A stretch of DNA of 64,000 nt, taken from contig CAVWDP010000002.1 of NCBI GenBank assembly GCA_963753835.1, forward strand, positions 99,495 through 163,494, in the 5' to 3' direction. This DNA is from an uncultured Bacteroidales bacterium. Its GTDB lineage: Bacteria > Bacteroidota > Bacteroidia > Bacteroidales > B18-G4. The translations under genes were made by a program, and so were the position numbers. Of the stretch, positions 4,569-40,743 are shown piece by piece. The notes below the pieces were generated by a model, which had not been told where the DNA came from, did not search any database, and saw only the letters and a program-made list of their open reading frames with translations. Position 1 is the stretch's first letter. Each line of letters starts with the position of its first letter.

Positions 4569-5729
4569 TTATCTGGGAATAGAGGCAATATCTTCCAGGG
4601 CCGCAATGGCGGCATCAATATGTGCTTCGGTATTAAATGGCCCAATGCTGAGCCTGACAGTGCCATGGATATCGACTGTTCCAATTCCCTCATGAACCAG
4701 GGGTGCACATTGCAGACCGGTACGGCAGGCAATATTATAATCAACATCCATCATAGTACCTACATCGCCAGAGTCAAACTTATCGATATTTATACTAAGG
4801 ACCGCATTCCTGTTGGCAGGGTCATCAGCACAATATAGTGTGATATTTCCAATGTCTTTTATCCCATTTTTGAGTTTATTCCAAAGCTTCATCTCCTGTG
4901 CATGCAAGGCTTCTATACCTTGCTCCAGCACCCATTTTGTTCCTGCGAACAGCCCAGCCACACCTATGATGTTCAGGGTTCCACACTCCATCCTGTAGGG
5001 AAACTCTGCCAGGTGTGTTTTCTGTGCCGAACGCACACCCGTACCACCAAAGCGGGTTCCTTTTATGGGCAGATTTTCTGTGATATAAGAACCCCCGATT
5101 CCTGTTGGCCCCATCAGGCACTTATGGCCGGTAAAGACAAGAGCATCTATGCCCATAGCTTTTATATCAATGGGAATGGCACCCGCACTCTGGCTTGCAT
5201 CTACCACGAAATATACACCAGCCTCTTTACAGATCTTTCCGATCTCGGTAATGGGCTGCACTGTCCCAATCACGTTGGAGCTATGGTTTACAACAACCAT
5301 TTTTGTGTTCTTACGGATGGCTTTTTTAATGTCGTCGGGATGTACATAGCCATGTTTGTCGAAAGGCACATGGGTGACCTCCGCTACTCCGTTTAATGCA
5401 AGATGATGCAAGGGTCGAAGGACAGAATTGTGTTCCAACATGGTGGTGACCACATGATCGCCTTTTTCGGCCAGGCCCATAATGATCATATTGAGGGAGT
5501 CACTTGCATTATAGCTAAAGGTCAGCCTGTTCGGATCATCTCCATTGAATATCCCGGCCAGCAATTTTCGGGCATTTTGTACAATCTCTTCAGTTTCTAT
5601 GGCTGCATCAAAGCCTGAGCGTCCGGGACTCACACCTTTTGTGCGATAAAAACTGTCCATAAATTCATAAACCACTTCTGGTTTCGGAAATGAAGTGGCC
5701 GAATTATCAAGATAGATTAAGTTGCTCAT
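4569..5729 (-). CDS. Class V aminotransferase / cysteine desulfurase (SufS/CsdA-like)
   Basis: 386 aa with PLP-lysine context FTGHKCLMGP and a C-terminal active-site loop RTGLQCAP resembling the group II RxGxHCA motif. Confidence 0.8.
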   Translation of the reverse strand: MSNLIYLDNSATSFPKPEVVYEFMDSFYRTKGVSPGRSGFDAAIETEEIVQNARKLLAGIFNGDDPNRLTFSYNASDSLNMIIMGLAEKGDHVVTTMLEHNSVLRPLHHLALNGVAEVTHVPFDKHGYVHPDDIKKAIRKNTKMVVVNHSSNVIGTVQPITEIGKICKEAGVYFVVDASQSAGAIPIDIKAMGIDALVFTGHKCLMGPTGIGGSYITENLPIKGTRFGGTGVRSAQKTHLAEFPYRMECGTLNIIGVAGLFAGTKWVLEQGIEALHAQEMKLWNKLKNGIKDIGNITLYCADDPANRNAVLSINIDKFDSGDVGTMMDVDYNIACRTGLQCAPLVHEGIGTVDIHGTVRLSIGPFNTEAHIDAAIAALEDIASIPR

Positions 5730-5751
5730 TATATTTTAGTGTTTCAGTGTT

Positions 5752-7050
5752 TCAGTGTTCCAGCACGATGGCATCTGCCACGATCTCTGCCAGGGTCTTG
5801 ATCTTCACATTAAGCTTGTATGCGGCATTGGTTTGCATAAGCTGGTCAACACAATTATGACAGGGAGTTGCCACTACGGTGACCCCTGTTGCGCTGATCT
5901 GATCGGCTTTCAATTTCGCTATACCCATCCTCCGTTCATTATACTCGCTCATGGAAAGTTGTCCGCCACCACCACCACAACAAAGGTTATCTGTTCCGGA
6001 TGGTGTCATTTCCACGAAGTTCTTCACGCATTTTTCCAGGATATACCGTTGTTCTTCATAAATACCCCCACCACGGGTGAGGTTACAGGGGTCGTGCAGG
6101 GTAACCGGCTCCTGGTTCTTTTCAGGGTCAACCTTGATTCTGCCTTCACGGATATATTCTGCAAGCAATTCTACAGAGGTAATTACATCAAAGTCAAATT
6201 CTTTTTCAAGATAGTTGGGAGCTTCCCATCGGAATGCACGTGATCCATGCCCGCACTCGGCCAGGACACAACGCTTTGATCCCAGGCTCAACATCTCATC
6301 CTCCATGCGCTTCGCAATCACCTTGCCCTCTTCAAGGCTACCTGAAAAGTAGGCATAATTGGTCACATCGTACATTTTAGTGGAGATGGTCCAGCTTTCA
6401 TCAGCGGCATAAAAAACTTTGGCCATGGCTGATATAGATAGCGGAAAGAATTTCGGTTCCCTGGGATTAAGGGTATACATGATATCCTTCCCCTTTTCGT
6501 CTAACGGGATGATGGCTTTGTCGTCGTTCACTTCAAACTGCAGGTCTTCCTCAAGCCACTTCAGGGTATCCACAAATTCTTCGGTAGCGATGCCCATATT
6601 GTTTCCGGTGGAGATGGCAGTATCGACAGTCTTTTGCAGTGTTTCTGGCACATAACCCATTTCTGCAAGCATGGAGCGACCGGTCCGGATCAGGAATTCG
6701 ATATCTACGCCAACAGAGCAATGTTTATTACAGCGTCCGCACATGGTACAGCTTCCAAAAAGCAAGTCGACCATATCCTCAATGCTGGCATCATCGAGTT
6801 TCTTTGCTCCGGTGAGCCAGGGAAAGGCTTTTCCGCTTATAGTGTTATATCTCCGGTAAACAGAGGAGACGATATCCACTTTTTTAGCTGGTACAAAATG
6901 CTCATCTGGCTTCAATCGGTAATAAATGCAACTTTCGGCACAAAGACCGCAATGCACGCAGGCGTTGACATGGGTGAGCAGCTTGCTTCCGACATCCCGC
7001 TTCAGCACCTCAAGGCCTTTCCTGATTTTCTCGTCAGTGAGCTTTTCCAT
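5752..7050 (-). CDS. Fe-S oxidoreductase of the DsrK/HdrD/GlpC type (2x[4Fe-4S] plus CCG domain)
   Basis: 432 aa with two CxxCxxCxxxC motifs (CVHCGLCAESC, CTMCGRCNKHC). C-terminal CCG-domain signature CCGGGGG ... PCHNC. Confidence 0.8.
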   Translation of the reverse strand: MEKLTDEKIRKGLEVLKRDVGSKLLTHVNACVHCGLCAESCIYYRLKPDEHFVPAKKVDIVSSVYRRYNTISGKAFPWLTGAKKLDDASIEDMVDLLFGSCTMCGRCNKHCSVGVDIEFLIRTGRSMLAEMGYVPETLQKTVDTAISTGNNMGIATEEFVDTLKWLEEDLQFEVNDDKAIIPLDEKGKDIMYTLNPREPKFFPLSISAMAKVFYAADESWTISTKMYDVTNYAYFSGSLEEGKVIAKRMEDEMLSLGSKRCVLAECGHGSRAFRWEAPNYLEKEFDFDVITSVELLAEYIREGRIKVDPEKNQEPVTLHDPCNLTRGGGIYEEQRYILEKCVKNFVEMTPSGTDNLCCGGGGGQLSMSEYNERRMGIAKLKADQISATGVTVVATPCHNCVDQLMQTNAAYKLNVKIKTLAEIVADAIVLEH

Positions 7051-7053
7051 GTC

Positions 7054-7689
7054 TTACTTTTTAATGGGCTTAGGCGGCCACACCCCTCTCCAGCCATAAA
7101 AATATCCAAGGTGATAACGGGCAGCAAAGAAGTAAACAGCATGTTTCAGTTTTCCCAGGGGAAAATATAATAGCAGCAGGGAAACAATAATATAATATGC
7201 AGGGCCAAAGTTGGCATCGATATATAAGAGCATAGTGATCAACTGAAAGTCGGTAACCAGTATATTGGAAATGTAATCGTCGGGGTTTGACAAAGCACGC
7301 AGTTCATGTTTTGTCAGCCGTTTGATCAGGATGCCGATTCCGCAGATGACAGAAATACCCATTATGGCCACCACCGCCCAATTCATCCAGCCATGCAGCC
7401 AGATGTTGAAAATGTGGAGGAAGAATAATAATATAGCCAGAAAGGTACCAATATGATAAATGATCCCGGCAATGTAGGTAGGCATGTGCATGTAAGCCGA
7501 TTCTTTCACTTTCGGACTCATGGCCCCGGTGAAAGAATAGCGAACAGCTTTTCCAATATGTCCAGCGCGCCTGGCATATTCCGGAGGATTGCCAAGGCTG
7601 ATGATCCTGTAGAAGTGATAAACACAGCTAAGCAAACAGATGAAAAAGGCAATAATTGCCACCCATTGATACCAGATCATAATAAGCAA
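7054..7689 (-). CDS. NarI/DsrM/HdrE-like polytopic membrane protein (putative di-haem b quinol-interacting subunit)
   Basis: 211 aa with about 5 hydrophobic helices and several intramembrane His (YHF, IYHIG, FLHIF, WLHGW). Starts 3 nt after the downstream gene boundary, so the two look translationally coupled. Confidence 0.6.
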   Translation of the reverse strand: MLIMIWYQWVAIIAFFICLLSCVYHFYRIISLGNPPEYARRAGHIGKAVRYSFTGAMSPKVKESAYMHMPTYIAGIIYHIGTFLAILLFFLHIFNIWLHGWMNWAVVAIMGISVICGIGILIKRLTKHELRALSNPDDYISNILVTDFQLITMLLYIDANFGPAYYIIVSLLLLYFPLGKLKHAVYFFAARYHLGYFYGWRGVWPPKPIKK

Positions 7690-7693
7690 TTAA

Positions 7694-8011
7694 TTATACA
7701 CAACCATCAGGTTTTGGTAATCCTGCAACCCTGCAGGCACCCCTTGCAGGACCGAGGGGAAAGAGCTCATAGATCTCCCTGAGCCGTATCCCTGTTTCCT
7801 GGCATATGGTCCGTACCATGGGGGCCATTCCTTTTTCTTCCCAATTCTTCCGGATAATATCTACAATAGCCCAATGCTTTTCATTCATTTCTTCGATGCC
7901 GTCGTGTTTAGCGATCAGGCGTGCAACCTCTTTGTCCCAGATCTCAGGATCAGACAGGAAGCCATCACCGTCAACATCAAATGTTCTGCCTTCAATTTCT
8001 ATTGTTGCCAT
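7694..8011 (-). CDS. dsrC: DsrC/TusE-family sulfur-relay protein, two-cysteine (DsrC-type) C-terminal arm
   Basis: 105 aa ending ...GACRVAGLPKPDGCV. It has a penultimate Cys plus a second Cys exactly 10 residues upstream, the DsrC pattern (TusE has only the last Cys). Confidence 0.8.
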   Translation of the reverse strand: MATIEIEGRTFDVDGDGFLSDPEIWDKEVARLIAKHDGIEEMNEKHWAIVDIIRKNWEEKGMAPMVRTICQETGIRLREIYELFPLGPARGACRVAGLPKPDGCV

Positions 8012-8030
8012 AAGGTTTGGTTATAAATGG

Positions 8031-8276
8031 TTATTCGTTTTCTTCTTCAAACTTATCGATGATCTCATCGAGGCTGAGGGGAGTGTTAGGAAGCACAAAA
8101 TCAGGACAAAAGCCCAGGGATTTCTTGGTATTGAATCGTGTGCAATTGCTCCACACCTCTTCATTTTTCCTGCACCACAATTCCAGGTATTCTTCCTTCT
8201 TTTTAACGTCAGGTATAACAATGCTTGTTGATACCATCCTGCAGGTATTAATATTCGGGCAAAGATTTTCAGACAT
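8031..8276 (-). CDS. Small Cys-rich acidic-tailed protein, function unknown (first gene of the DsrC operon)
   Basis: 81-aa ORF with 5 Cys (CPNINTC, WC, NC, FC) and an EEENE tail. It sits 19 nt upstream of dsrC on the same strand. No family recognised. Confidence 0.5.
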   Translation of the reverse strand: MSENLCPNINTCRMVSTSIVIPDVKKKEEYLELWCRKNEEVWSNCTRFNTKKSLGFCPDFVLPNTPLSLDEIIDKFEEENE

Positions 8277-8452
8277 AGGTTCAGTTTAAGAGGGCGAAAA
8301 TTATAAAAAATTCGCTATCTATATAGCTTAATATGTGTGGTTTTTAGTAATCTATATTGCTTTTAAATAGTAATAAGGGTACAGGGTACAGGGTTCAGGG
8401 TTTTGGAAAATCTCCTATATTTGTTTCACACATTAACCTAAAATCTACACTT

Positions 8453-9547
8453 ATGAAAAAAGTTTCCTTGTTAATCTTAAGTCTGATCATTGTGAATACG
8501 TGTTTTTCGCAGGATTATCTGGCCCGTGCCCGGGCAGATAAAGAATGGGGATATATTAATTATGAAGGTAAGTGGGTGATAAACCCTCAGTTTGCACATG
8601 TAAATGATTTCAGTGAAGGCCTTGCTGCCGTTGAGAAAGACGGTGAGTGGGGATTTGTTGATAAGGCAGGGAATTTCAAGATCAATCCCCAGTTCGATCA
8701 TGCAAGGGATTTTCATAATGGTCTTGCTGCAGTGAAGAAAGATAAAGAGTGGGGTTATGTTAACAGTGAGGGCAAGTGGGTGATCAACCCACAATTTGAA
8801 GATGCCGAGGATTTTGTTGGTGCCCTGGCTCCTGTAAATTCGGGAGGTGACTGGGGTTTTATTAATCCAAAAGGCACCTATGTTATCAATCCACAGTTCG
8901 ACAAAGTGAATCAATTTACAGAAAAGCTTGCTCCGGCACTAAAAGACAAACAGTGGGGCTATATTGACAATAAGGGAAATTGGGTGATCAATCCTCAATT
9001 TGAAAAAGCGGAGGCTTTTAATAATGGCATTGCCATGGTACGTAAAGGTGGAGAATGGGGATTTATTGATACCAAGGGAACCTATGTGATCAACCCACAA
9101 TTTGATAATGCCAGGGAATTTAGTGAGGGCCTCGCTGCAGTAAAAAAAGGGAAAGAATGGGGCTATATCGACAATAAAGGGAATTATATCATCAATCCCC
9201 AGTTCCTCAAAGCCAGGGATTTTACAGGCCAGCTGGCCGGAGTACTGAAAGGCAAGGAATGGGGTTTTATCGACGCTAAAGGCAATTATGTTGTGAACCC
9301 ACAGTTTACTGATGTGGAAGATTTCTCAAATGATAAAGCAGCTGTAAAGAAAGAGAAGGATTGGGGCTATGTGAACAGCAAGGGCGAATGGATTGTGAAC
9401 CCTCAATTTGAAAAAGCCCGCCCATTTGGGAAATCACGTGCAATGGTAAAAAAAGGTGGCGAATGGGGCTGGATCGATAATAAAGGCAAGTATGTGATCA
9501 ACCCACAATTCCCGAATGCATATCCATTTTCGAGTGTAGCCTGGTAA
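8453..9547 (+). CDS. WG-repeat (KWG-type) secreted protein
   Basis: Start at MKKVSLLILSLII (internal Met of ORF 8357..9547). Ten tandem 34-aa units of the form EWGYIDxKGxWVINPQFxxAxxFxxGLAxVKK. Confidence 0.8.
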   Translation: MKKVSLLILSLIIVNTCFSQDYLARARADKEWGYINYEGKWVINPQFAHVNDFSEGLAAVEKDGEWGFVDKAGNFKINPQFDHARDFHNGLAAVKKDKEWGYVNSEGKWVINPQFEDAEDFVGALAPVNSGGDWGFINPKGTYVINPQFDKVNQFTEKLAPALKDKQWGYIDNKGNWVINPQFEKAEAFNNGIAMVRKGGEWGFIDTKGTYVINPQFDNAREFSEGLAAVKKGKEWGYIDNKGNYIINPQFLKARDFTGQLAGVLKGKEWGFIDAKGNYVVNPQFTDVEDFSNDKAAVKKEKDWGYVNSKGEWIVNPQFEKARPFGKSRAMVKKGGEWGWIDNKGKYVINPQFPNAYPFSSVAW

Positions 9548-10101: not shown

Positions 10102-10866
10102 CTAAAACCTTAATGATAAACAGCTCAGCCCTCCATCCAGCTTCCTGAACTCAGACATGTCAAGAACAATAGTTTCATAACCGGCCGACACTATGTTTTT
10201 TAATGTTACAGGATATCCATCAGGTACAAGTACCGTCCCATTCAACCAAAGAGAATTGGCCGCATAAGATTCATTGTCAGGTACTGGAATGATGTCGAAA
10301 TGATGGAAAGCAGGATGTTTATCTAAGGCATCCACGGCAAGCAATATATTGTTTTCAAGGTATGAAACCCCTGACTTAAGATGCAACATGCCCGATATTT
10401 CAACAATCACAGCTGTCATACCATTTTTTTCAAGGATACTGATCAATTGTTCAGCTCCTTCAATATTTGTCCGATCAGAGAGCCCGATAAAAAAATGATC
10501 CCCACACATCATCACATCTCCGGCCTCCAGTGTTCCTGGTGAACGGATGTATTCAATATTATTATAAAACCTTTTAATGCTTGTCTCCATGCCATATACT
10601 TCTCCTCTGCGTGATGGGGCGCCCGGATTTGTAATTACCGCAACACTTTTACATAGTAATGCAGTGTCTTCAACAAAGGTGCTGTCGGGGTATTCAATAT
10701 CCGGAGGAAGAAGCGTAACATCAAGTTTGCAAGCCTGAAGTGCGTTCACATATTGTTCGTGTTGCAACAAGGCAAGATAAAAGTCCGGGATCCCCAAACC
10801 TGAAGAACTTAGCCCCTCGCTTATATTTTCACAGGGGGTGCGTACAATGGCATTGGTAAAATGCAT
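10102..10866 (-). CDS. Dimethylarginine dimethylaminohydrolase / amidinotransferase-fold enzyme
   Basis: 254 aa starting [11 protein letters not shown], with [13 protein letters not shown] and a C-terminal catalytic-Cys context [11 protein letters not shown] typical of the DDAH/arginine deiminase fold. Confidence 0.75.
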
Positions 10867-10916: not shown

Positions 10917-10974
<58 letters not shown>

Positions 10975-16697: not shown

Positions 16698-18602
16698 TCA
16701 AACTGTCTTCCTGACCAGATTATAGGTAGTACCCGAGATATTCACTTCTCCGATTTCCCCACTTGATTCCATTCTAGAGGCGATGTTCACGGTATCTCCC
16801 CAAATATCATACTGGAATTTTTTAATCCCAACGATCCCCGCAACAACAGGTCCTGTATTTATGCCGATCCTGATCTCAAAGTAAGGAAGGCCCTTGCTGG
16901 TCCTGTTTTCCTTTAGCGCAAGCATAAAATCACGAATTTCCATGGCTGCGCGTACTACATCAGAAGGGTTTGTTTTGTTGGGGATTGGCAATCCTCCTGC
17001 ACACATATAGGCATCACCGATGGTTTTGATCTTTTCTATATTGTAATTGGCAATGATGTTGTCAAAAGCTTTAAAGCAATGATCGATCTCTGCCACCAGT
17101 TCATCAGGGCTCAGCACCTCTGCCATCTTTGTGAAACCTGCGAAATCAGTGAACAAAACAGTCACCATCTCAAAGCTCCTTGCTTTGGAGCTCCCTTTTT
17201 CTTTAAGCTCCTCAGCAGTTTCTTCAGGGAGAATATTGAGCAGCAGCTTATCCGACTTCTCCTTTTCATCCTGGATGATCACATTCTTTTCTGCCAATGT
17301 ATTCCTTGTCCTTCGCACGTATCGGTAGCGGTGCAAGAGTAAGAGAGCTAACAGGAGAATTCCCCCACCCAGTCCTGCCACAGAATTTCTGATGATCTTT
17401 TGTCGCCTGATCATGAGGTCCTGTATCTTCGCGTCTTTATTGAGCAGGTCGATCTCTGCCTTCACCTGTTCATCTTCAAATTCATTGATTTTTTCCAGGG
17501 CCTTGTTTTTTTCCGTATCAAGGAGGCTCAGGCGCTCTTCATTATATTTTTCCTTGTACAAGTAGGCATTTTCAAAGTCACCAAGCCTGAAATATATATC
17601 CGCTAGTCCATCGTAAATTTCCAATTGATTTTGCCTGGCACCAAGACTGTTAGCCATGCTTTCAGCAAGCAGGTAATTTTTAAGTGATTTTTTATAAAAT
17701 TCCTGGTCTCTGTAAATTTCGGCAGTGGTAATAAAATAAACAAGCTTGCCTATCTCATCATTGGTCTGCAGGGCAAGCGTATATGATTGCTCGGCAAATG
17801 AAAGGGCCAGGCCGAATTTTTGCATATTTTTGTAGGTGATTGCCATATTTGACAGGGTGATCGACATGTCAACCTTATTATCCAGGTCTTTTTGTATCAT
17901 AAAAGCCTTGGTATAATATTCCAGGGCCTTTTCGTGCTCATCAAGCTCAGAGTAAACAGTTCCGATATTTCCATAGTTCTTCACCAGCCGACTGTGATCT
18001 TCATTTTTTTCATTGATGATGATGGCCTGTTCATAGTAGTATATGGCCTGATCATTCATTCCCATCTCTGAGTACCTGGACCCAAGGCTGTTGTAAACTT
18101 TGGCCATGCTCAATGAATCTTCTGTCTGGATAAAAATTTCAAGGGCCTTCATTAAGTATTCCAGGGAGAGCTCCAGCTGTCCCATGATGGAATAAACGAT
18201 CCCGTAATTATTATAGATGTTGCCCTGATCTTCCTTCAGGTCATATTTTATTGCCATCGACAGGGCAGAATCATACATCATGATGGCAGAATCATATTGT
18301 CCGTTCAGGTCATGACTGATGCCCTGGTACATGATCATTCGTGGGACTACCCTGTGATATGAAGAAGAAAGGGCGATATCCAATACACGCTTTGCATCCT
18401 CCATCGACTGATCGGGATCATTATACAGATCGTTATTAATACAGTGGCATAATTCAAAGAAGGTGTTGGTATCAATATTTCCACCCTCCAGTTCCCTGAA
18501 CAGGCTATCACTGAAATGCCGGTTCTGGGCACTTAGGGTACCGGCCAGACAAAAAAGTGAAAAACCGATAAAGAAAATTGAAAAAAACCTCAACATCTGC
18601 AA
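16698..18602 (-). CDS. Class III adenylate/guanylate cyclase with N-terminal TPR sensor region and one TM helix
   Basis: 634 aa with TPR-like repeats, a TM segment (GLGGGILLLALLLL), and a CYC domain (VLFTDFAGFT, IKTIGDAYM, GINTGPVVAGIVG, YDIWGDTVNIASRMES). Confidence 0.85.
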   Translation of the reverse strand: MQMLRFFSIFFIGFSLFCLAGTLSAQNRHFSDSLFRELEGGNIDTNTFFELCHCINNDLYNDPDQSMEDAKRVLDIALSSSYHRVVPRMIMYQGISHDLNGQYDSAIMMYDSALSMAIKYDLKEDQGNIYNNYGIVYSIMGQLELSLEYLMKALEIFIQTEDSLSMAKVYNSLGSRYSEMGMNDQAIYYYEQAIIINEKNEDHSRLVKNYGNIGTVYSELDEHEKALEYYTKAFMIQKDLDNKVDMSITLSNMAITYKNMQKFGLALSFAEQSYTLALQTNDEIGKLVYFITTAEIYRDQEFYKKSLKNYLLAESMANSLGARQNQLEIYDGLADIYFRLGDFENAYLYKEKYNEERLSLLDTEKNKALEKINEFEDEQVKAEIDLLNKDAKIQDLMIRRQKIIRNSVAGLGGGILLLALLLLHRYRYVRRTRNTLAEKNVIIQDEKEKSDKLLLNILPEETAEELKEKGSSKARSFEMVTVLFTDFAGFTKMAEVLSPDELVAEIDHCFKAFDNIIANYNIEKIKTIGDAYMCAGGLPIPNKTNPSDVVRAAMEIRDFMLALKENRTSKGLPYFEIRIGINTGPVVAGIVGIKKFQYDIWGDTVNIASRMESSGEIGEVNISGTTYNLVRKTV

Positions 18603-31501: not shown

Positions 31502-32570
31502 TTAGTACTTGTTCAATTTTTTGTCCTTTTTGTAATTTTTTATCATTTTCCCAAAATCCTTGTCTTTCTTACGTTTTTCAGCAACAGTCGATTCAAAATG
31601 TTCTTTTTCCCGTTCCATTTTCAAGTAGTTTTCATAGGACGATTTATCTATTTCTCCACTTTCTACGCTTGCTATAACTGCACAGTCAATTTCTGTTGTA
31701 TGTGTGCAATCTTTAAATTTGCAATCTTTGGATAGTTCTACTATTGTTTCAAATGTAATTTCTAATCCATCTGTTGAATCTGCAATCCCAACTTCTCTCA
31801 TTCCAGGATTGTCAATTAAAATCCCTCCATTTTCGAGAACCAACAATTCACGGTGACTTGTAACGTGTCGTCCTTTGTTTGTACTTGTACTAATTGTGTT
31901 TGTTTTCATAAATTGTTTACCTGAAAGATTGTTCACAAGAGTTGATTTTCCTACTCCTGATGAACCTAACAAGCAGTAAGTTTTACCTTTTATGATACTT
32001 ATCTTTTAGTCTATCGATTCCTATTAGGGTTTCATTGCTTATAGTAATTACAGGTACTTGCTTAATTCTATCTTGAACATTAGCAATCAACTTTGTTAAT
32101 TCTCTATCTTCTATCAGGTCAATCTTGTTGAGAATGATAATTGGTTTTACGTTGGATGTATTGCAAATAGTCAGGTACCTTTCTATTCGGTTGATGTTAA
32201 AATCCCTGTCAACTGCTTGTACAATAAAAGCAAAGTCAATATTTGTTGCTATAATTTGTTTTTCGCCTTGTTTGCCAACTGCTTGTCTTTCAATGATGGT
32301 ATTTCTTGGAAAAATGGAATGAATAAGTACTTTATCTTCATCATATTCAGAAATTGCAACCCAGTCACCAACAGCAGGGAAATCAGACCTTTTATGTGCC
32401 GAAAATCTTAAATTTCCGATTATTTCAGCATCATATTCATTTTCGGTAGTTTTTACAACGTATCTTTCCTTGTGTTCGGAAATAACTCGTCCCACTCCAA
32501 ATGAATCAAGATTTTGGTCCTTTCGGTAATTTTCCAATTCTATATTATATCCTAAATCTTCAAGTGTCAT
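31502..32570 (-). pseudogene. rsgA: Ribosome small-subunit-dependent GTPase A, frame break in an A4 run
   Basis: ORF 31983..32570 (OB-fold N-terminus and circularly permuted G4 NKIDL) and ORF 31502..31972 (GSSGVGKST, DNPG, C-terminal Cys cluster CKFKDCTH..C). The frame carrying GKTYCLLGSSGVGKS is reached by one A fewer/more at 31988-31991. AT-rich. Confidence 0.8.
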
Positions 32571-32593
32571 TTCTTTTCTCCTGTATTAAGCAC

Positions 32594-33238
32594 AACTTGT
32601 TTATTGATTCACCTTTATTATCATTATATGTCTAAATTGGGGTTGTAATGGTAATGATATGTGCTATTATGTTTCAAAATCCTCTATTGGGGTTTTGACT
32701 TAATTAAACAGCTTATCAGTAAAGATAAAAAATATTGGTGCTGCAACTTCCACCAAAAAAGAGGAGCGGTAAAAAAGGGGCGCACGTTGTGCAGCCCCTT
32801 TTTTGATATCTGATATCTGATATTTGAAGTTTGAAGTTTCTGCTCCGCCAGTTGAGCGCACCTGTCATCCTGCATCGCCCGCTGTAGCTTTAGCGAAAGC
32901 GGGAGAGTTGCGGAGCGAGCGTAGCAAGTGACGAGGGACCCCCATCAGTTTTGCACCTCGCTATCATGCAGCACCTCTTCTATTAAACTCCAAACTGTCA
33001 AACACAAAATTTCAAAAAAATACCAAACTGTCAAACTCCAAATTCCAAATTAATCCATCACTATATTCCCCATCCATCATCCACTGTGTCCTCTGTAGCT
33101 ATCCGCGAGCGCAGAAGCTACTCAGCGGAGGCGCTAGCGAAAGAGGATAATTCATCATCCATAATTATTTCCGCGAATGCGGAAATCCCGCCCCGGTTGC
33201 CTGGGACCGGAATAAAATCGTTCCTTTATTTGGTCACG
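32594..33238 (+). repeat. Modular intergenic repeat, copy 4 (165-bp AT-rich leader, tRNA 3-prime-like fragment, T-A-B-C-E-F, extra multi-stem module, G)
   Basis: 32594-32870 and 32933-33062 are identical to 37751-38027 and 38048-38177. 32759-32935 is nearly identical to 27259-27455. Extra module TCCTCTGTAGCT..AGCTAC..AGAGGA at 33089-33147. Confidence 0.9.
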
Positions 33239-33371
33239 TTTTGAAATCTAATTCTGTTTTAACGGTCGAGGGTATGTGACGTAAGGGATTGCGGAGCAGT
33301 TTCCTGTCCGCTGATACAAAAGTTTGAGTGGGCTACAATCCTTGAAATAATTGCTATCACAGCTATTATTT

Positions 33372-34459
33372 TTATACATTGTTAGGTGGAGTTTTTTCTT
33401 CGTCTTGTGTATTTAATCTGTCGATTATATTATATTTCGCCTGTCTTTTCTTCCACCTATCCCTTGCATATTTTTGCATGTCAACTATGGTATCGGTTTC
33501 ATCAATTATTTCAAGACCTAGCAAAGTTTCAATAATATCTTCCATTGTTACAATTCCGTCAAAACCACCATATTCATCTACAATTAATGCAATATGTTCT
33601 TTTTTTTCCAATAGTTTTTCCCACAAAGCAAAAAGTTCTATACTATATGGAACAATAACTATCTCTCGTTTAATATCTTTCAGTTTTAATTCATGTTGGT
33701 CTTCGGCTAGTTTTTCAAAAACTTCCTGCCTAAAAACATATCCTGTTATGTTTTCTTCATTTTCTGAATATATAGGAATACGTGAAAATTTTAGATAATC
33801 TTTATTCTTAAAAAAATCTTTTAAGGATAATTTCTCATCGGCAACAGCAACAACAACTCTTGGGGTCATAATTTCTGCTACTTTCACATTTTTGAGCCGA
33901 AGTAAATTTTGAATTATTTTATGTTCATTATTTGAAAAAACACCTTCATCTGCTCCTATATTTGCTAATGCTGCAATTTCCTCTCGGCTAGTAGTTTGCT
34001 CTTGTCTGTTTTTTGAATAAGTTTCGTAATGACTGCTGACATTACAACCAATGGATAGGTAATAATTATCATACCTTGTATAATTCGAGAAGAAATCATG
34101 GCTAGATTTCGCCAATATCTGGCTCCAATTGTTTTTGGAATAATTTCGGTAATTACTAGAATTAAAATTGTTAAAATAGCTGATATAATTCCAAAAGAAG
34201 CTTCACCAAATACTTTAACTGCTTGTGCTCCAACTCCAGCGGCACCAACTGTATGTGCTACGGTATTTAATGATAAAATTGCAGATAAAGGCTTGTCAAT
34301 ATTGGTTTTTAAATCAACAAATGATTTTGCCCAGGTATTTCCTTCTTCATGCTTAACAATCAAGAAGGATTGTGGTGTTGAAAGAAGCACGGCTTCCATT
34401 ATAGAACAAAGAAATGAAACAACAAGAGCAAGAAATAAATAGAATAAAAGTAATATCAT
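33372..34459 (-). pseudogene. CNNM/CorC-HlyC family protein (DUF21 TM domain plus CBS pair), frame break in a 6-nt homopolymer
   Basis: ORF 33965..34459 (DUF21-like TM helices) and ORF 33372..34115 (SREEIAAL...IMTPR, CBS pair, DEYGG..GIVTMEDIIE). The frames join at the T6 run at 34009-34014. The last about 8 codons and the stop lie in sequence shared with the rsgA 3-prime flank. Confidence 0.75.
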
Positions 34460-34661
34460 GTATTTTCTTTCAAAATTACGACAGTATGAATTAATTTAGG
34501 ATGATGTCTTCGTTAAAATACCACCTAGCGGTTCTAATATGGGGCGTTGGGCATTTTGAAACACCTACCTATCAAACCGCAATATGTTTTATTAAATGTT
34601 CTCATTTTCAATTTTGCCAATCCGCCCAATGACCTATATTTATTGTTATCAACAGAATGTG

Positions 34662-35816
34662 CTATTTCTGTTGATTTAACCAAATTTCATTAGAGTATTC
34701 ATTGGAACCACCATCAAAATTTGAAATAAAAACATCATTAATCCCATCATTATTAAGATCTTTAATTATAGGACGCTGAAAAAGATTTTTGCTTCCGATT
34801 ATAGAATCACTCTCTGTAAAATTCCCATTTCCATCATTATACCAGATTCTGTTTGCTTCGCCTAAACTTGTAATAAATAGATCTAATGAGCCATCACCAT
34901 TTAAATCTCCTATCCCAATTCTTCCAAAAATAGCAGGAGATAGTTTTTGTTCACTATAAGTAAATATCCCTTTTCCATTGTTTAATAATATTTTCGAGGG
35001 AGTACTAAAATTACGGGTGCCATTTGTTAATATGATATCCAAATCGTTATCATTATCTATATCTCCGGATACAAAAGAACCATAAATTATTGTAGTGTCT
35101 TTCATAGTCCAATATTTCATAAAGTTCCCCCCATCATTAATTAGAGATTCGAAACCACTTCCTACTTGTCTGGAGAATATATCCATATCCCCATCATTAT
35201 CCACATCAAGAAGCAGTGGATTTTTAGGAATTGTAACGTCACTTTTGGTGAATTCTCCATTTCCATTATTCAAATACAAAATATTTGCTGCCGAATTGTA
35301 TTCTATTATGGCGTCAATATCTCCATCGGAATCCATATCAGCTAATTGTATTGCATTACCACTAAACTTTTCATCGCCAAGGTTTTGCTTGCTATCATAA
35401 AACTGCCCCTTACCGTTGTTAAAATAAATTTTGCTAGGGATTTCATTATATTTTTCTTCATTTTCGCTTTTATAACCCGCACATACAATAAATATATCAG
35501 GACTGCCATCACCATTTAAGTCATCAATACCAACACCATGACCCTGTTGAGTGAGTTTTTGACCGGAATCTGTAAAGTTACCATTCCCATCATTGAACAA
35601 TATTTGACTATGATTATATCCCATATTGGCGCACACGGCATCTAAATCCCCATCCATATCCAAATCCTCAAGTCCAATTTGATAGGTGCTTTTCTTATGT
35701 GAATATTGGTTGTTTTTTTTGAGATTAACAATGGTCTTTTGGGCATAAATACTATTCAAACAACTGCATGCCATAATAGAATAAATCAATAGATTTTTAA
35801 GTGAATTTACTACCAT
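34662..35816 (-). CDS. FG-GAP/VCBS repeat (CRTAC1/ASPIC-like) secreted protein
   Basis: 384 aa with at least 7 repeats carrying DxDxDGDxD calcium-binding loops (DLDMDGDLDAV, DDLNGDGSPDIF, ADMDSDGDIDAI, GDLNGDGSLDLF...). AT-rich. Confidence 0.8.
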   Translation of the reverse strand: MVVNSLKNLLIYSIMACSCLNSIYAQKTIVNLKKNNQYSHKKSTYQIGLEDLDMDGDLDAVCANMGYNHSQILFNDGNGNFTDSGQKLTQQGHGVGIDDLNGDGSPDIFIVCAGYKSENEEKYNEIPSKIYFNNGKGQFYDSKQNLGDEKFSGNAIQLADMDSDGDIDAIIEYNSAANILYLNNGNGEFTKSDVTIPKNPLLLDVDNDGDMDIFSRQVGSGFESLINDGGNFMKYWTMKDTTIIYGSFVSGDIDNDNDLDIILTNGTRNFSTPSKILLNNGKGIFTYSEQKLSPAIFGRIGIGDLNGDGSLDLFITSLGEANRIWYNDGNGNFTESDSIIGSKNLFQRPIIKDLNNDGINDVFISNFDGGSNEYSNEIWLNQQK

Positions 35817-35838
35817 GTTTATTTCCTTTTATTTTGTT

Positions 35839-35858
35839 GATAACGGATGGGGCTATGA
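35839..35858 (-). promoter_or_regulatory. CATAGC-N6-CCGTTATC motif upstream of FG-GAP gene
   Basis: The minus strand reads TCATAGCCCCATCCGTTATCAAC, 22 nt upstream of the ATG at 35816. Related to GCCATAGCAGCGGCCGTTATCGG (27747) and GCCATAGCAGCGGCCGTTGGC (revcomp of 45151). Confidence 0.4.
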
Positions 35859-36134
35859 AGCGTCCCGAGTCCTCGGGATGCGATATTAGCCTGTGTTATG
35901 TTTAGTATTTATTCTAAATTCCCTTTTAATCAAACTTCATTTTATTTATTTCAAATAAATAGGTAGTCTGTAAATTTACTCACTTATTCTTTTTACTACA
36001 GACGAATTCAATGTATTTTTATGGTTTTATATCAATCTCCAGCTGATATAATGCCGTAAGAAGAATGACAGGAAGGCCCCGATTGATTTAGACTGTGATT
36101 CCTGAAATGCTTTTAAGTCAACAATAAATGGGTT

Positions 36135-37119
36135 TTACCTGATTACAAACTGTGAGGTCAGTACACCATCATCAGTGTAGAATACAACTGTGTACACACC
36201 ACTTTTCAAGTCAGATGTATTTATCGTTACGTTAAAGTTGCTTATCTCAATAGCTTCGACTAGTTTTCCGGTGACATCGATTATCTCAATCCTGTTAACA
36301 TCAGATAATTCATTTATATTCAACTTGTCCGCTTGCGGGGTTCGGATAAATAACATATTCAGCCCTTGTTTTGGATTCAAAAATACCGGGAATACAGTAC
36401 ACCCCAGACATCATTCACTGTCATCCATGTTGTATCAATAACAGTTATCATGCGATTTCCACTAACAAGTTCTTCACCATTGTCCCAGCTGGGTTCATTG
36501 TTAATAATACGGTAATATTTATATTCATAATCACCTTGATATAAATACAGACCGTGGGTATAAATATAGTCATCGACTTCACCAAATGGAGCCATCTTGT
36601 ATTGGGGGATAGTACCTGGCATAGCCCAATTATTGGCCAGGCTTCCTGCAATATATAGAAATTCTATCGCCGGATTGAAACCCTCCACTTCCATCAAATC
36701 AATCCAAAAATATACTGCTACAGGTTTATCACTCCAGTAATCACTATAAATTGATTTCTTCCGTAAGGATGATGTCTACGGTTGGGGTCACCCTCCCATT
36801 CATCATTATCCCAACTTGCTTCGCCGTTGATAACACGAAAATATTTATACAAGATCTCCCCAGAATCCACTTCCACGCGTAAGTTCATAAACATTTAGGT
36901 CCAATCCGAGTATTAATTTATAGGTCGGATCATCGCCGGGTTTCTCCCAATCAGTAAATGTACCAGAGATATATACTTCATCTGTTGTCGGATTAAATTC
37001 TTCGGATTCACTCATGTCGACTTTAAAAGTGACTGTAAAATTAGTTTGTCCAAATGCAACAGATCCCAGTAAGCAAAACAGACAAAAGTGTAAAAATAGT
37101 TAACGTAGTATGTTTTCAT
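36135..37119 (-). pseudogene. Degraded T9SS cargo gene (tandem carbohydrate-binding-like domains plus CTD), multiple frame breaks/stops
   Basis: ATG at 37119 gives an N-terminal hydrophobic stretch. Fragments 36377..36697 (YEYKYYRIINNEPSWDNGE) and 36135..36380 (CTD ...LKSGVYTVVFYTDDGVLTSQFVIR) are in different frames. 36700-37100 has a second copy of the domain broken by stops. Confidence 0.65.
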
Positions 37120-37384
37120 AATGCATAGTTTTTACTCCATAAAGATAATCAAGAAAAATGCAAAATGTACCATAGTAAGTAATCAAATAATGAGACTATT
37201 TCGAACTATCCCATTAAACAGGGTTGTCAGGTAAATTCTTTTATTGAAATACGTTATGATTTGTGGTAACTTTTTAAACCAATCACAACAGTTTTTATGA
37301 TTGGAATATCTTACTGAATATCTATAAACTATTCTCCAGCCTGTGAATACATCCCAATTCTATTATGTAAATAGGCATATTAAA

Positions 37385-37531
37385 CATAACGTTTGGCGGC
37401 TATGCAGCGTGCGGCCATTTTCGGCCGCATTGCTAAAATTACGAAAATATCTGGCGCATGCGGTATGAGGAGCTGTTATGGAAGCGTAGGACCGCCTGCG
37501 GGCCATGCGCCAAGGTATTGGCGCAGAATTT
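37385..37531 (-). repeat. Upstream module J, copy (about 265 nt upstream of the degraded gene start at 37119)
   Basis: Shares AAAATTACGAAAATATCT, GTTATGGAAGCGTAGGACCGCC and GCGCCAAGGTATTGGCGCAGAATTT with 45151-45285. The left end CATAACGTTTGGCGGCTATGC carries the CATAGC..GTTAT motif. Confidence 0.7.
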
Positions 37532-37750
37532 GACCTCTCGCCCCCATGGGCGAAATGCCTCTCCGCAGACTTGAAATTGGCACAACATTTCGCCCTAAAT
37601 TCTGTGCCAATACCGGGTAGGATCAGCTTTGGGATTATTGGCTTGCACGATGGCACGATTGTGCGATATTCGATTTCCGAAGGAATCAAAAACCTGCTAC
37701 AATTATTTGCAAAGGAAGATTTGGAATGTTAGGGTGGGGCTATGTTCTAT

Positions 37751-38275
37751 AACTTGTTTATTGATTCACCTTTATTATCATTATATGTCTAAATTGGGGT
37801 TGTAATGGTAATGATATGTGCTATTATGTTTCAAAATCCTCTATTGGGGTTTTGACTTAATTAAACAGCTTATCAGTAAAGATAAAAAATATTGGTGCTG
37901 CAACTTCCACCAAAAAAGAGGAGCGGTAAAAAAGGGGCGCACGTTGTGCAGCCCCTTTTTTGATATCTGATATCTGATATTTGAAGTTTGAAGTTTCTGC
38001 TCCGCCAGTTGAGCGCACCTGTCATCCCGAACCCCGAGTACTCGGGGGAGGGACCCCCATCAGTTTTGCACCTCGCTATCATGCAGCACCTCTTCTATTA
38101 AACTCCAAACTGTCAAACACAAAATTTCAAAAAAATACCAAACTGTCAAACTCCAAATTCCAAATTAATCCATCACTCACTTCGTCCGCCGAAGTTTTAA
38201 CGAAGGCGGAACACCCAACACCTTTTTCCGCTATGGCGGGGAAAACCGGTGGTTTATTCGGTAAGGGCTGGGGGC
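37751..38275 (+). repeat. Modular intergenic repeat, copy 5 (leader, tRNA 3-prime-like fragment, T-A-B-short C-E-F-G)
   Basis: Perfect duplicate of copy 4, except that the 62-nt C insert is replaced by the 20-nt CGAACCCCGAGTACTCGGGG and the sequence diverges after TAATCCATCACT. Confidence 0.9.
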
Positions 38276-38355
38276 TTTATTCTGTTTAATGGTTTTGTGG
38301 ATACCAGATATAATTGGCTTTACGTATTGTTTGGTGCAGTTTATTTTCTTTCAAA

Positions 38356-38814
38356 TCAATTTCTTAATAATATGAAAGCATTCAATGATGTAGCAATCAT
38401 TAACCAAATGACATACGGGAGAATCAATATAGATTTTAATTTTAACTCTGGCCAATAATAGAATAGAAAGAATCCAACAAGTAGGGTTAGTCCTGCTATT
38501 ATGAAGAGCCCAGCTGAAACATTGTGGTAATAAAAGAAAGTTGGGTTCCATCCTACATTCAATATCCATTGAGCTGCATATAAACCAACCAGGAGTTTTT
38601 TGTTCTCAATGACTGGCCACGCATACGCCATGTAAATACCAAAAAGAATCATGATTGTAGTCCATGCAGCTCCAAAGACCCATCCTGGAGGAGTCCATGG
38701 AGCTTTAGCCAAACTTATATACCATTCGGACGGGACTCCTTTTCCTGTAAATACCCCCCCTATTGCAAGTGCACCAAAATTGAGTGCTAAGAATATGATA
38801 AGCCTATAAATCAT
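38356..38814 (-). CDS. tspO: TspO/MBR family tryptophan-rich sensory protein
   Basis: 152 aa with five TM helices and Trp-rich motifs (APWTPPGWVFGAAWTTIM, WNPTFF). Confidence 0.85.
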   Translation of the reverse strand: MIYRLIIFLALNFGALAIGGVFTGKGVPSEWYISLAKAPWTPPGWVFGAAWTTIMILFGIYMAYAWPVIENKKLLVGLYAAQWILNVGWNPTFFYYHNVSAGLFIIAGLTLLVGFFLFYYWPELKLKSILILPYVIWLMIATSLNAFILLRN

Positions 38815-38852
38815 TCCGTTTTATGTGTTTAATCTTGGATAATATTTCTTCC

Positions 38853-39047
38853 TTACTTTTTTAGATTTCTCGGTAGAATCAATTCATATTCTTCAAATCG
38901 ATGCCTTCTAATAGGTCTGATCGTGGGATCTGTAGAAAAATATAAAAGCAGACAAGGGCTTATTGATTTGTATTCATCCACATATTCATACCCGATTAGT
39001 TCATTGTTTTTAATTCGTTGCTTAATTTTATTGTGATATGGATACAT
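38853..39047 (-). CDS. Small conserved hypothetical protein
   Basis: 64-aa ORF MYPYHNKIKQRIKNNELIGYEYVD...RPIRRHRFEEY. The pattern is recalled from small conserved bacterial proteins of unknown function. Confidence 0.45.
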   Translation of the reverse strand: MYPYHNKIKQRIKNNELIGYEYVDEYKSISPCLLLYFSTDPTIRPIRRHRFEEYELILPRNLKK

Positions 39048-39134
39048 TGAGTGTAGTGCTTAATTATATCTAATGTGTTTATATGTACCCCATTGGTAAC
39101 CATACATACCAATATAGGCTGGATAAAAACACGT

Positions 39135-39440
39135 TTATTAGTAAAGATATAAAATTTCTATTCTGCAACTTCCACCCCCAAAGGGGCTGCACAAGGTGCG
39201 CCCCTTTTTTGATATTTGAAATCTGATCCTTCGACTTCGCTCAGGACAGGTTATCTGATATTTGAAGTTTGAAGTTTCTGTTCCGCCAGTTAATTGCACT
39301 TGTCATCCCGATCCTGAGTACTCGGGAGAGGGACCTGCTGGCGTTTGCACCTCCCCATTAAAAAGCACCATTTCCCCGTCCCTTGCCCCTCGTACCCCGC
39401 ACCCCATCCATCATCCATAATTCATAATCCATAATTATTT
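39135..39440 (+). repeat. Modular intergenic repeat, copy 6 (T hairpin inverted, A with CCTTCGACTTCGCTCAGGACAGG insert, B, short C, E)
   Basis: CTGCAACTTCCACC is followed by GGGGCTGCACAAGGTGCGCCCC, which is the reverse complement of the copy 1 hairpin. Then TTTTTTGATATTTG..., GTCATCCCGATCCTGAGTACTCGGGAGAGGGACC and CTGCTGGCGTTTGCACCTCC. Confidence 0.85.
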
Positions 39441-39498
39441 TTAATCTTGACAATGGCTGGAATATCAATTGCCATTATAGTACTGGCAAACGGATTTA

Positions 39499-40237
39499 CT
39501 ATTTTATTTGAAAAAATATTTTTTTAAACCTTTGAGGAAGTTCATCTTTTAGATGGACTATTTCATTTGTAAACGGATGTATAAATTTTAAAGAATAGGC
39601 ATGTAAATACAATCCTTTTCCGTTTAAAATTAAATTTTCAATTCCATATTCTTTATCTCCCAATATCGGATTTCCGATACGTGACAGATGTATGCGTAAC
39701 TGATGTCTTCTCCCGGTTTTAGGTTTTAATTTCACCAGGTTGAGTTTGCCGAATTTTTTTGAGGGAACGGTTTTGATTAGTGTATAATTCTGATCGTGAT
39801 TTCTTGCCGTCGATTGTTGAAATGATTTTTCCCCGATGTTCCATTTCACCAATAGTAATGGCATAATAGGTTTTCTTAATCTCATTGTCTTCAAACATTT
39901 TATTTAAAGCACGAATGCTACTCCTCGTTTTCCCAACCAATAAAATACCTGTGGTTGGATAATCTAATCGGTGAACAGCTTGTGGTGTTGTAGCATCAGG
40001 AAGATTACTTTGTTTGATGTTTTGAGCCAAGGCATTGGCAATGGTTTTAAAACTATTTCCGCTCACCAAAATACCTGCAGGTTTATGAATCACGGCTAAG
40101 TGATTGTCTTCAAATAATACTTCAAGTGGAAAGACCAGTTTTTTCTTAGGACTGACCTCTTCTGGAATGGATAAGCTAATGGTTTCACCACCATTTATAA
40201 AAGTAGCGGAAGTAGCAATAACATTATTAACCGTCAC
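39499..40237 (-). pseudogene. RluA-family pseudouridine synthase with S4-like N-terminus, frame break and no usable start codon
   Basis: ORF 39719..40237 (HRLDYPTTGILLVGKT) and ORF 39499..39894 (TGRRHQLRIHL) are in different frames, joining near 39800. The N-terminal S4-like frame is open to 40385 without ATG, GTG or TTG. Confidence 0.7.
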
Positions 40238-40676: not shown

Positions 40677-40743
40677 GTACTTCCAGCGTATTGCAGAACC
40701 TTGGCAGAAAGTCCACCATTAGTATAATATCACAGGAATAATT

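Follow-up and report, generated by a model that had tools for sequence, protein, structure and literature searches.

A conserved cysteine desulfurase-DsrC-DsrMK-like gene module in Bacteroidales as a candidate DsrAB-independent DsrC redox cycle

Five co-oriented open reading frames (ORFs) form an operon at positions 4569-8276 on the minus strand of a stretch of Bacteroidales DNA of 64,000 nt, which is referred to here as the window. In gene order they encode an 81-aa Cys-rich protein, DsrC, a membrane protein, an Fe-S protein and a cysteine desulfurase. The five genes are tightly linked in evolution, and the catalytic residues of the identified proteins are conserved. The last four genes constitute a conserved functional unit according to four lines of evidence, namely two neighbourhood scans, a linkage that outlives gene order and natural gene fusions. 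We put the probability at about 0.5 that this module operates as a self-contained, DsrAB-independent DsrC redox cycle, which would be fed by a dedicated cysteine desulfurase. The features of the operon and the basis of each assignment are as follows.

4569-5729, minus strand: cysteine desulfurase dependent on pyridoxal phosphate (PLP), TIGR01977 (EF2568/SclA) family, 386 aa (TIGR01977, Pfam)
5752-7050, minus strand: HdrD-type Fe-S subunit of the DsrK/HmcF/TmcB group, 432 aa, predicted to be cytoplasmic (NCBIfam, Pfam, motifs)
7054-7689, minus strand: NarI/HmcE/TmcC-like integral membrane protein, annotated with 211 aa, start probably at ATG 7680 (208 aa) (weak profile matches, fold, His residues)
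7694-8011, minus strand: DsrC, 105 aa, with C93 as CysB and C104 as penultimate CysA (PF04358, TIGR03342)
8031-8276, minus strand: acidic Cys-rich protein, 81 aa, first gene (ORF; C6, C12, C35, C45 and C57 invariant)
8277-8356, minus strand: upstream intergenic region, putative operon promoter, shared with a divergent WG-repeat gene (read from the sequence)

The original prediction, made from the sequence of the window, had described a tight five-gene operon, and all five minus-strand ORFs were found where it had placed them. The gaps it gave, 19, 4, 3 and 22 nt in gene order, agree with the annotated ORFs, except that the gap between DsrC and the membrane gene is more likely 13 nt than 4 nt. 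This correction follows from moving the start of the membrane gene to ATG 7680, because Met4 is 98% conserved and an identical product of 208 aa (P0121) is present in the protein collection. Exact counterparts of all five operon proteins occur in this collection, each on a single contig. The presumed Bacteroidota background was supported by five window proteins carrying the Por_Secre_tail domain of the type IX secretion system (T9SS; Pfam) and by the closest syntenic relatives, which are Bacteroidales metagenome-assembled genomes (MAGs) with 85-89% identity. Public annotations of the module proteins are generic, e.g. '(Fe-S)-binding protein', 'TusE/DsrC/DsvC family sulfur relay protein' or 'hypothetical protein'. 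On sequence criteria, four of the proteins qualify at the level of superfamily or signature as a DsrC, an HdrD homologue of the DsrK/HmcF/TmcB type, a NarI-like protein and a TIGR01977 member. Orthology of the module proteins to DsrK, HmcF, TmcB, DsrM, SufS, CsdA, SclA and TusE was rejected.

The 105-aa protein has the traits by which DsrC is recognised, i.e. matches to the family models, a penultimate CysA and a CysB located 11 positions upstream on the C-terminal arm. It scored 116.5 bits against PF04358 (9e-34; cutoff 24.9) and 98.9 bits against TIGR03342 (cutoff 53.5), while the 60.1 bits obtained with the TusE equivalog NF008562 are far below the cutoff of 191. The C-terminus reads CRVAGLPKPDGCV. 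Cys93 and Cys104, with 10 residues between them, are invariant in 49 homologues, as is the additional cysteine C70. Comparison to chains in the PDB yielded 49% identity to the Desulfomicrobium DsrC 2xsj_C in a gap-free alignment of all 105 residues (E 1.3e-31), compared to merely 3.5e-7 for the TusE-family 'sulfurtransferase' chain 7syb. The protein is nearer to DsrC of the reductive type (1e-31 to 6e-27) than to the oxidative DsrC of A. vinosum (2.6e-24). An identity as TusE was thus rejected, and the predicted true two-Cys DsrC was borne out by the TIGR03342 and TusE scores together with the invariance of C93 and C104.

The DsrC tail is AGLPKPDGCV. Its Asp is invariant in the DsrC family of the module, where canonical DsrC has Thr (KPTGCV), and the KPDGCV ending is kept even in the distant loci L081 and L084. 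The DsrC-specific C-terminal motif used by DiSCo is AGLPKPTG..C with one mismatch permitted (PMC8477390); the tail differs from it by a single change from T to D.

The 432-aa protein contains two ferredoxin-type motifs (C31xxC34xxC37xxxC41 and C101xxC104xxC107xxxC111) and one complete CCG motif (C322-X34-C357C358G-X38-C397xxC400), as had been read from its sequence beforehand. Pfam matches comprise CCG and Fer4_8, and a single PF02754 stretch spans residues 316-404. A further cysteine, C266, is invariant in the sequence AECGHG, of which E, C, G, H and G are each conserved to at least 95%, and each of the 13 motif cysteines shows a conservation of 97% or more across 80 sequences. One CCG motif combined with a conserved Cys in T/GECGH is the signature of DsrK, HmcF and TmcB, while HdrD and HdrB have two CCG motifs (Barbosa et al., PMC10861901). 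The T/GECGH cysteine is considered a remnant of the second CCG motif that is probably essential for catalysis, and in DsrK, HmcF and TmcB these features are tied to DsrC reduction (PMC10861901).

The best matches among the curated NCBIfam models were TmcB (2e-89, 300 bits), HmcF (6e-85, 286 bits) and DsrK (5e-67, 226 bits). All three values are below the respective equivalog cutoffs of 735, 750 and 400 bits. In a neighbour-joining (NJ) tree, built with representatives from an exhaustive HMMER search that were classified with NCBIfam, the 432-aa protein falls into a clade of its own, with 33-36% identity to reference DsrK, HmcF and TmcB-like representatives. On these sequence data the protein belongs to the DsrK/HmcF/TmcB group, yet it is no orthologue of any of the three. 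The earlier label 'DsrK/HdrD-like' therefore stands as a statement of group membership by signature and falls as a claim of DsrK orthology, given 226 bits against a cutoff of 400 and the separate clade. Placement in GlpC- or LutA-type families, which had been named as the competing assignment, was rejected, as GlpC gave 6.5e-11 and the lactate-utilisation proteins LutB/LldF gave 1.9e-5, compared to 2e-89 for TmcB. Neither a signal nor a Tat motif was found in the N-terminal sequence.

The membrane protein is more diverged. It matched the NCBIfam models HmcE (5.2e-6, 26 bits, cutoff 275) and TmcC (1.4e-5, far under its cutoff) weakly, and neither a Pfam family, including PF02665, nor the DsrM model was matched. 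Its AlphaFold2 (AF2) model reached a mean predicted local distance difference test (pLDDT) value of 79. The top eight Foldseek matches of the model in the PDB are all chain C of NarI (probability 1.0, E 0.03-0.1, template modelling (TM) scores 0.43-0.48), and the next match has an E-value of 0.8. Support for a NarI-type helical-bundle fold is moderate. Four histidines are conserved, H68 (98%), H79 (100%), H183 (100%) and H193 (83%); in the model, the first two are positioned on the helix 66-90 and the other two on C-terminal helices. In an hhalign comparison, the motifs YHxGTF and PxGKLKH aligned on FHVG and PFSKLVH of a protein positive for NarI/DsrM, in a weak match (E 0.003, probability 10%). 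Taken together, the weak profile matches, the fold and the histidines support the predicted NarI-like nature of this protein, and a placement outside the NarI/DsrM fold, which had been named as a refuting outcome, was not obtained. We read it as a diverged NarI-type dihaem cytochrome b, i.e. the predicted quinol-oxidising subunit with putative haem ligation by the conserved histidines.

The desulfurase passed TIGR01977 (433 bits, cutoff 377) and matched Aminotran_5 of Pfam with 2.7e-86. The PLP lysine K203 in GHK, the catalytic C341 in LQCAP and H202 are all conserved. Scores were under the cutoffs of the SclA model NF040779 (318.5 bits, cutoff 525), the SufS subfamily (248 bits, cutoff 475), the SufS equivalog (176 bits, cutoff 661) and CsdA (157 bits, cutoff 607). 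Orthology to SufS, CsdA or SclA was rejected on these values, and the SufS/CsdA-like label initially given to the enzyme has to be replaced by membership of the TIGR01977 (EF2568/SclA) family. In distant loci, the module-linked desulfurases also pass TIGR01977, with 428.6 and 408.3 bits.

Conservation of the neighbourhood, a survey of which had been proposed with the original prediction, was analysed in two scans. One used the DsrK-like protein as query against one genome per GTDB species and yielded 80 loci, 64 of which had enough flanking DNA to be informative. The other was anchored on DsrC and covered metagenome contigs, providing 80 further, independent loci (28 informative). Of the 64 informative GTDB loci, 44 combine the DsrK-like gene with DsrC, the membrane gene and the desulfurase; in the metagenome set, DsrC precedes the other three genes (membrane, DsrK-like and desulfurase) in 22/28. 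The arrangement is not due to chance, as dozens of genomes at species level and of metagenome contigs show the same order of DsrC, membrane protein, Fe-S protein and desulfurase. Carriers include Bacteroidales, Rikenellaceae, Lentimicrobiaceae, Porphyromonadaceae, Muribaculaceae, Ignavibacteria and Ca. Eisenbacteria, and the complete DsrC-anchored loci include two human-gut contigs (L124, L134).

The desulfurase remains linked even where the gene order has changed. It is inverted or convergent in six loci (L081, L082, L138, L142, L146, L161) and relocated upstream in three others (L084, L148, L149); linkage through the three gene arrangements persists down to 40-49% identity of the DsrK-like protein. 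Natural fusions also occur. In P0289 (L086, 6001-8013), an N-terminal domain homologous to the membrane protein (phmmer 1.6e-21) is joined to a DsrK-like protein, and in P0282 (L083, 2019-3668) and P0354 a DsrK-like protein ends in a DsrC-like domain devoid of the C-terminal cysteines. Synteny, retained linkage after rearrangement and fusions strongly support the predicted coupling of the desulfurase to DsrC and the DsrMK-like pair.

Clustering of the 1058 neighbouring ORFs of 80 loci revealed no other conserved partner; the next-best clusters are housekeeping genes found in close relatives only. The genes dsrAB, dsrJOP, dsrD and dsrN, as well as tus and sel genes, do not occur as conserved neighbours. 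For sulfite reductases this result spans 80 + 80 + 6 loci, and dsrAB was not found near any of about 160 related loci. A Pfam scan of every ORF of at least 294 aa in the window found neither a sulfite reductase nor selenium genes, so that the statement that no dsrAB is in view holds at this scale.

Several variants of the locus were observed in addition. A split module was seen in Bacteroidales from rumen, termite gut and deer (L064-L079, e.g. L069 6784-9287 and L071 6667-9293, and L143, L152, L154, L156-L159 and L162, e.g. L152 6001-6991): DsrC and the membrane gene share one site, where queA comes next in L152, and the DsrK-like gene stands alone at another. The desulfurase adjoins neither half, and the lone DsrK-like gene is located directly downstream of a MalY/PatB-like C-S lyase in six loci. 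A second, longer (~490 aa) class-V aminotransferase/NifS-like gene with a C-terminal RGGCACAG is present immediately upstream of DsrC in L047 (5369-6847), L063 (~6429-6975) and L020 (5566-6765), on top of the downstream TIGR01977 desulfurase. In L083, the fusion P0282 is found between a NarI/DsrM-type gene and a DsrC homologue without the penultimate Cys. Another DsrK-like relative, P0306, appears to be fused to an N-terminal membrane domain, judged by its hydrophobic N-terminus, and P0283 seems to carry a C-terminal response-regulator receiver domain, as judged by eye. The human-gut contig L116 was considered as a locus without the DsrK-like gene and rejected, as the assembly appears to be chimeric beyond ~7500, with the gene breaking off at that point; the sequence changes abruptly from low-GC Bacteroidales to high-GC inside the DsrK-like gene.

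Cysteine desulfurases yield an enzyme-bound persulfide and alanine. In the cycle that we propose, the TIGR01977 enzyme would take the sulfur off L-cysteine, producing alanine and a persulfide on Cys341, and would hand the sulfane sulfur to the penultimate Cys104 of DsrC. Cys93 of DsrC would then resolve the persulfide, leading to the release of H2S and an oxidised DsrC with a disulfide or a sulfur-bridged form. The HdrD-type subunit would re-reduce DsrC at a site composed of a noncubane [4Fe-4S] cluster and the ECGH cysteine, with electrons from menaquinol delivered via the NarI-like dihaem membrane subunit. The net reaction would be L-cysteine + menaquinol to L-alanine + H2S + menaquinone, which would amount to an electron sink that oxidises quinol and at the same time to a way of forming sulfide. 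No export signals were found in the sequences of the soluble module components, which would therefore reside on the same side of the membrane.

This scheme combines desulfurase chemistry and the anatomy of the module with two published activities. IscS and cysteine persulfurate DsrC at the penultimate Cys in vitro (Stockdreher et al., PMC3397948). DsrMKJOP was demonstrated experimentally to be a menadiol:DsrC-trisulfide oxidoreductase, in which electrons pass from menadiol via haems b and the noncubane cluster of DsrK to the DsrC trisulfide and sulfide is freed; DsrMK alone could suffice for this reduction (PMC10861901). The transfer of sulfur from the desulfurase to DsrC, the direction of electron flow and the quinone as donor are all proposed elements of the module rather than observed ones, and for the oxidised DsrC species a disulfide, a persulfide and a trisulfide are all conceivable. 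The extended proposal, that desulfurase-loaded DsrC and a minimal DsrMK-like quinol:DsrC oxidoreductase constitute cysteine-sulfur respiration, i.e. a previously unrecognised respiratory-type pathway in fermentative Bacteroidota and Ignavibacteriota, is put forward tentatively, and we would sooner expect it to fail than to hold.

A number of observations weigh against the proposed cycle. The sole demonstrated substrate of a DsrMK-type enzyme is the DsrC trisulfide (PMC10861901), which cannot arise from a persulfide without an oxidant, so that a disulfide or persulfide substrate has to be assumed here. For the DsrC trisulfide, no potential is known according to the same study, and menaquinol is uncertain as the driver. 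SclA, the only characterised TIGR01977 member, prefers selenocysteine (bioRxiv 10.1101/2020.02.07.939272), and dsrAB is present in some Ignavibacteria MAGs (PMC6018805). The adjacent desulfurase is missing in 5 of the 64 genome loci, and rumen and termite Bacteroidales keep DsrC and the membrane gene at one site and the DsrK-like gene elsewhere. Finally, the scores behind the homology of the membrane protein are weak.

The same genes could also work in the opposite direction, with electrons of a DsrC thiol or persulfide passing to menaquinone and the resulting disulfide or trisulfide serving as activated donor of sulfane sulfur for biosynthesis or storage. That would match what has been suggested for DsrMK(JOP) of sulfur oxidisers, where the complex oxidises persulfurated DsrC to the trisulfide (DiSCo introduction, PMC8477390). 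A persulfide of just this kind is what a desulfurase provides, HdrD-type enzymes are reversible in principle, and the gene content of the module is compatible with both directions. We nevertheless regard the oxidative direction as unlikely: neither DsrAB nor any other consumer of the trisulfide is linked in about 160 loci, DsrC is closer to the reductive than to the oxidative type (see the E-values above), and the carriers are fermentative anaerobes of guts, rumen, digesters and sediments, which would benefit more from a sink for electrons than from a further source of them. Somewhat less probable still is a role as accessory to DsrAB, AsrABC or another siroheme sulfite reductase encoded elsewhere in the genome, to which the desulfurase would be only loosely related. 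The module would then be a regular, scattered component of dissimilatory sulfite reduction. Two-Cys DsrC almost always co-occurs with DsrAB (PMC3397948), some Ignavibacteria MAGs do carry dsrAB (PMC6018805), asrABC has been reported in some Bacteroidetes (review PMC13232883), and the search for sulfite reductases in the carrier genome was confined to the 64-kb window. However, sulfite reductases were found neither in the window nor among the conserved neighbours, the Fe-S subunit falls short of the DsrK cutoff (226 versus 400 bits) and forms a separate clade, the desulfurase is the one partner kept through rearrangements, and the KPDGCV tail deviates from the canonical KPTGCV. The module is moreover common in Bacteroidales of the rumen, the termite gut and the human gut, from which, to our knowledge, dsrAB is not known.

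The family of the desulfurase raises the question of selenium. If the enzyme were a selenocysteine lyase, DsrC and the reductase would carry selenium and reduce it to selenide for selenophosphate synthetase or for detoxification. The founder of TIGR01977, EF2568 (SclA), adjoins selD (PMC2276186) and is specific for selenocysteine in vitro, with cysteine acting as inhibitor (bioRxiv 10.1101/2020.02.07.939272), and the window enzyme passes the same family model. It is, however, well under the SclA model (318 versus 525 bits), and no selD, selA, selB, tRNA-Sec or YedE/YedF was found in the window or among the conserved neighbours. All DsrC proteins characterised so far carry sulfur, and a respiratory-type membrane complex would seem disproportionate for a trace element. 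Selenium handling accordingly has a low probability in our estimate, below that of the accessory role. A relay as in TusE, with the DsrC homologue carrying desulfurase-derived sulfur to an enzyme of tRNA or cofactor thiolation, is disfavoured and highly improbable. The DsrC homologue TusE is supplied with sulfur that stems from a cysteine desulfurase (PMC3397948), and one member of the cluster was annotated by the Joint Genome Institute (JGI) as 'tRNA 2-thiouridine synthesizing protein E'. Against this stand the scores for TusE given above, the invariant second cysteine of DsrC and the lack of linked TusA, TusBCD and MnmA; such a relay would also have no role for a quinol-linked membrane reductase.

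In comparison to the known systems, the module would work like DsrC/DsrMK, and its architecture resembles that of HdrED and of the TmcBC or HmcEF cores. With DsrC and DsrMK(JOP) it shares a two-Cys DsrC (49% identity to that of a sulfate reducer), a NarI-type and an HdrD-type subunit, the latter with the ECGH cysteine, one CCG motif and a pair of [4Fe-4S] motifs. It differs in that dsrAB, dsrJOP, dsrD and dsrN are not linked, the Fe-S subunit has only 33-36% identity to true DsrK and stays under its equivalog cutoff, and, compared to DsrM, the membrane subunit is far shorter and has diverged further, without a match to PF02665 or the DsrM model. The DsrC tail is KPDGCV instead of KPTGCV. Sulfur seems to be supplied by a cysteine desulfurase, not by sulfite reduction; the desulfurase occupies the place at which sulfite reducers have DsrAB.

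For both redox subunits, the best-scoring curated models are those of the TmcBC and HmcEF proteins of Desulfovibrio (TmcB 300 and HmcF 286 bits; HmcE and TmcC ~1e-5), which have the same architecture of a single CCG motif and T/GECGH (PMC10861901). The scores are nevertheless far under the equivalog cutoffs of 735 (TmcB) and 750 (HmcF). Unlike TmcABCD and HmcABCDEF, the module features neither cytochrome c subunits (TmcA, HmcA) nor TmcD, and its electrons presumably stem from the quinone pool instead of periplasmic hydrogen or cytochrome c3. HdrED of methanogens likewise consists of two subunits, a dihaem cytochrome b anchor and an Fe-S subunit with CCG domains, and passes the electrons of a membrane carrier on to a disulfide (PMC10861901). 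HdrD, in contrast, has two complete CCG motifs, where the module protein has one and the ECGH cysteine, and the predicted substrate of the module is the protein DsrC instead of the disulfide of coenzymes M and B (CoM-S-S-CoB). In the IscS-TusA-TusBCD-TusE-MnmA relay of E. coli, persulfide sulfur from a desulfurase also ends up on the penultimate Cys of a DsrC-family protein (PMC3397948). TusE has only one functional Cys, though, the relay works without a redox membrane complex, and the module lacks the Tus and MnmA partners. SclA (EF2568) belongs to the same TIGR01977 family of group II NifS-like PLP enzymes, with conserved His100, Lys and Cys. The module desulfurase differs from it by its score under the SclA cutoff, its location away from selD and the fact that over 60 loci link it to DsrC and the DsrMK-like pair.

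A full-text search found no description of a desulfurase-DsrC-DsrMK-like module in the searchable literature, in agreement with the earlier statement that it could not be matched to a described pathway. The arrangement is unmentioned in large Dsr synteny surveys (Neukirchen 2023) and in a 2026 review on gut sulfide pathways (PMC13232883), and DiSCo, Stockdreher 2012 and Barbosa 2024 contain no description of it. The module is real and strongly conserved and, as far as can be told, undescribed so far; it does not represent new chemistry in kind. The dissimilatory sulfur cycle that depends on DsrAB counts DsrC and the membrane reductase of DsrC among its hallmarks. A second cysteine in DsrC is held to be almost confined to organisms with DsrAB (Stockdreher et al., PMC3397948), and DsrC in DsrAB-free genomes is counted as a false positive by DiSCo (PMC8477390).

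If the proposed cycle is correct, thiol chemistry of the DsrC/HdrD type exists outside sulfite reduction, and matches to DsrC or DsrK in metagenomes would no longer be evidence for sulfate or sulfite respiration. Abundant anaerobes, including Bacteroidales of the human gut and the rumen, would possess a new quinone-linked route from cysteine to H2S (and alanine), and sulfide production by these bacteria is of relevance for health and agriculture. For fermentative Bacteroidota and Ignavibacteriota, gut and rumen members among them, the module would constitute a DsrAB-independent electron sink that oxidises quinol. The two-subunit complex is also a simple system for HdrD-type catalysis with a single CCG motif.

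The first gene of the operon codes for the 81-aa protein, whose five cysteines are invariant across 31-34 homologues. Just 38 homologues were detected among 5.8 billion proteins, all of them unnamed or 'hypothetical', and no Pfam or NCBIfam family was matched. The AF2 model is helical (pLDDT 71.6) and gave no match in a fold search of the PDB. The gene is located upstream of DsrC in 32/64 informative genome loci. A tblastn search found no homologue in any of the Ignavibacteria-labelled loci, and in those of them that were checked no small Cys-rich ORF precedes DsrC. By these sequence comparisons the protein is confined to the Bacteroidota versions of the operon as a putative accessory, possibly with a function in binding metal or sulfur.

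The putative promoter of the operon is located in the intergenic region 8277-8356. A TATAAT read by eye at 8305-8300 overlaps TAATTTTC at 8303-8296, 20-29 nt upstream of the ATG. The latter sequence resembles TAnnTTTG, the Bacteroidetes -7 consensus. An inverted repeat, GCGAA-N12-TTCGC at 8294-8315, overlaps the promoter-like TATAAT/TAATTTTC 20-40 nt upstream of the first gene; with arms of 5 bp, it may be due to chance. The divergent neighbour at 8357-9547 (plus strand) encodes a secreted WG-repeat (PF14903) protein with nine repeats. It adjoins the operon only in the closest relatives (L001, L002, L005, L008, L014, L021, L031) and is for this reason not a member of the module.

The sole RNA gene of the window is a tRNA-Asn, and neither a riboswitch nor any other Rfam element was found in the window apart from this tRNA. 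Two further genes on the minus strand are unlinked to the operon in related loci, a tetratricopeptide repeat (TPR)-rich adenylate/guanylate cyclase of 634 aa (16698-18602) and a B12-binding radical S-adenosylmethionine (SAM) protein of 523 aa (40744-42315). The GC content of the stretch 32000-40700 is 0.33-0.38, compared to ~0.42-0.46 elsewhere in the window, and its part from 35.8 to 40.7 kb features only short ORFs of at most 172 aa; the stretch may represent an island, gene remnants or non-coding DNA. A heptamer tandem repeat, GTAGGCA x 8.3 with 98% matches, is located at 10917-10974, just before a 340-aa ORF starting at 11113 and upstream of an amidinotransferase/arginine deiminase (ADI)-like gene (10102-10866, weak Pfam match to arginine deiminase). 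The thymidylate synthase encoded at 46198-47289 (minus strand) has 363 aa and aligns end to end with the 266-position Pfam profile, which corresponds to an insertion of ~100 residues.

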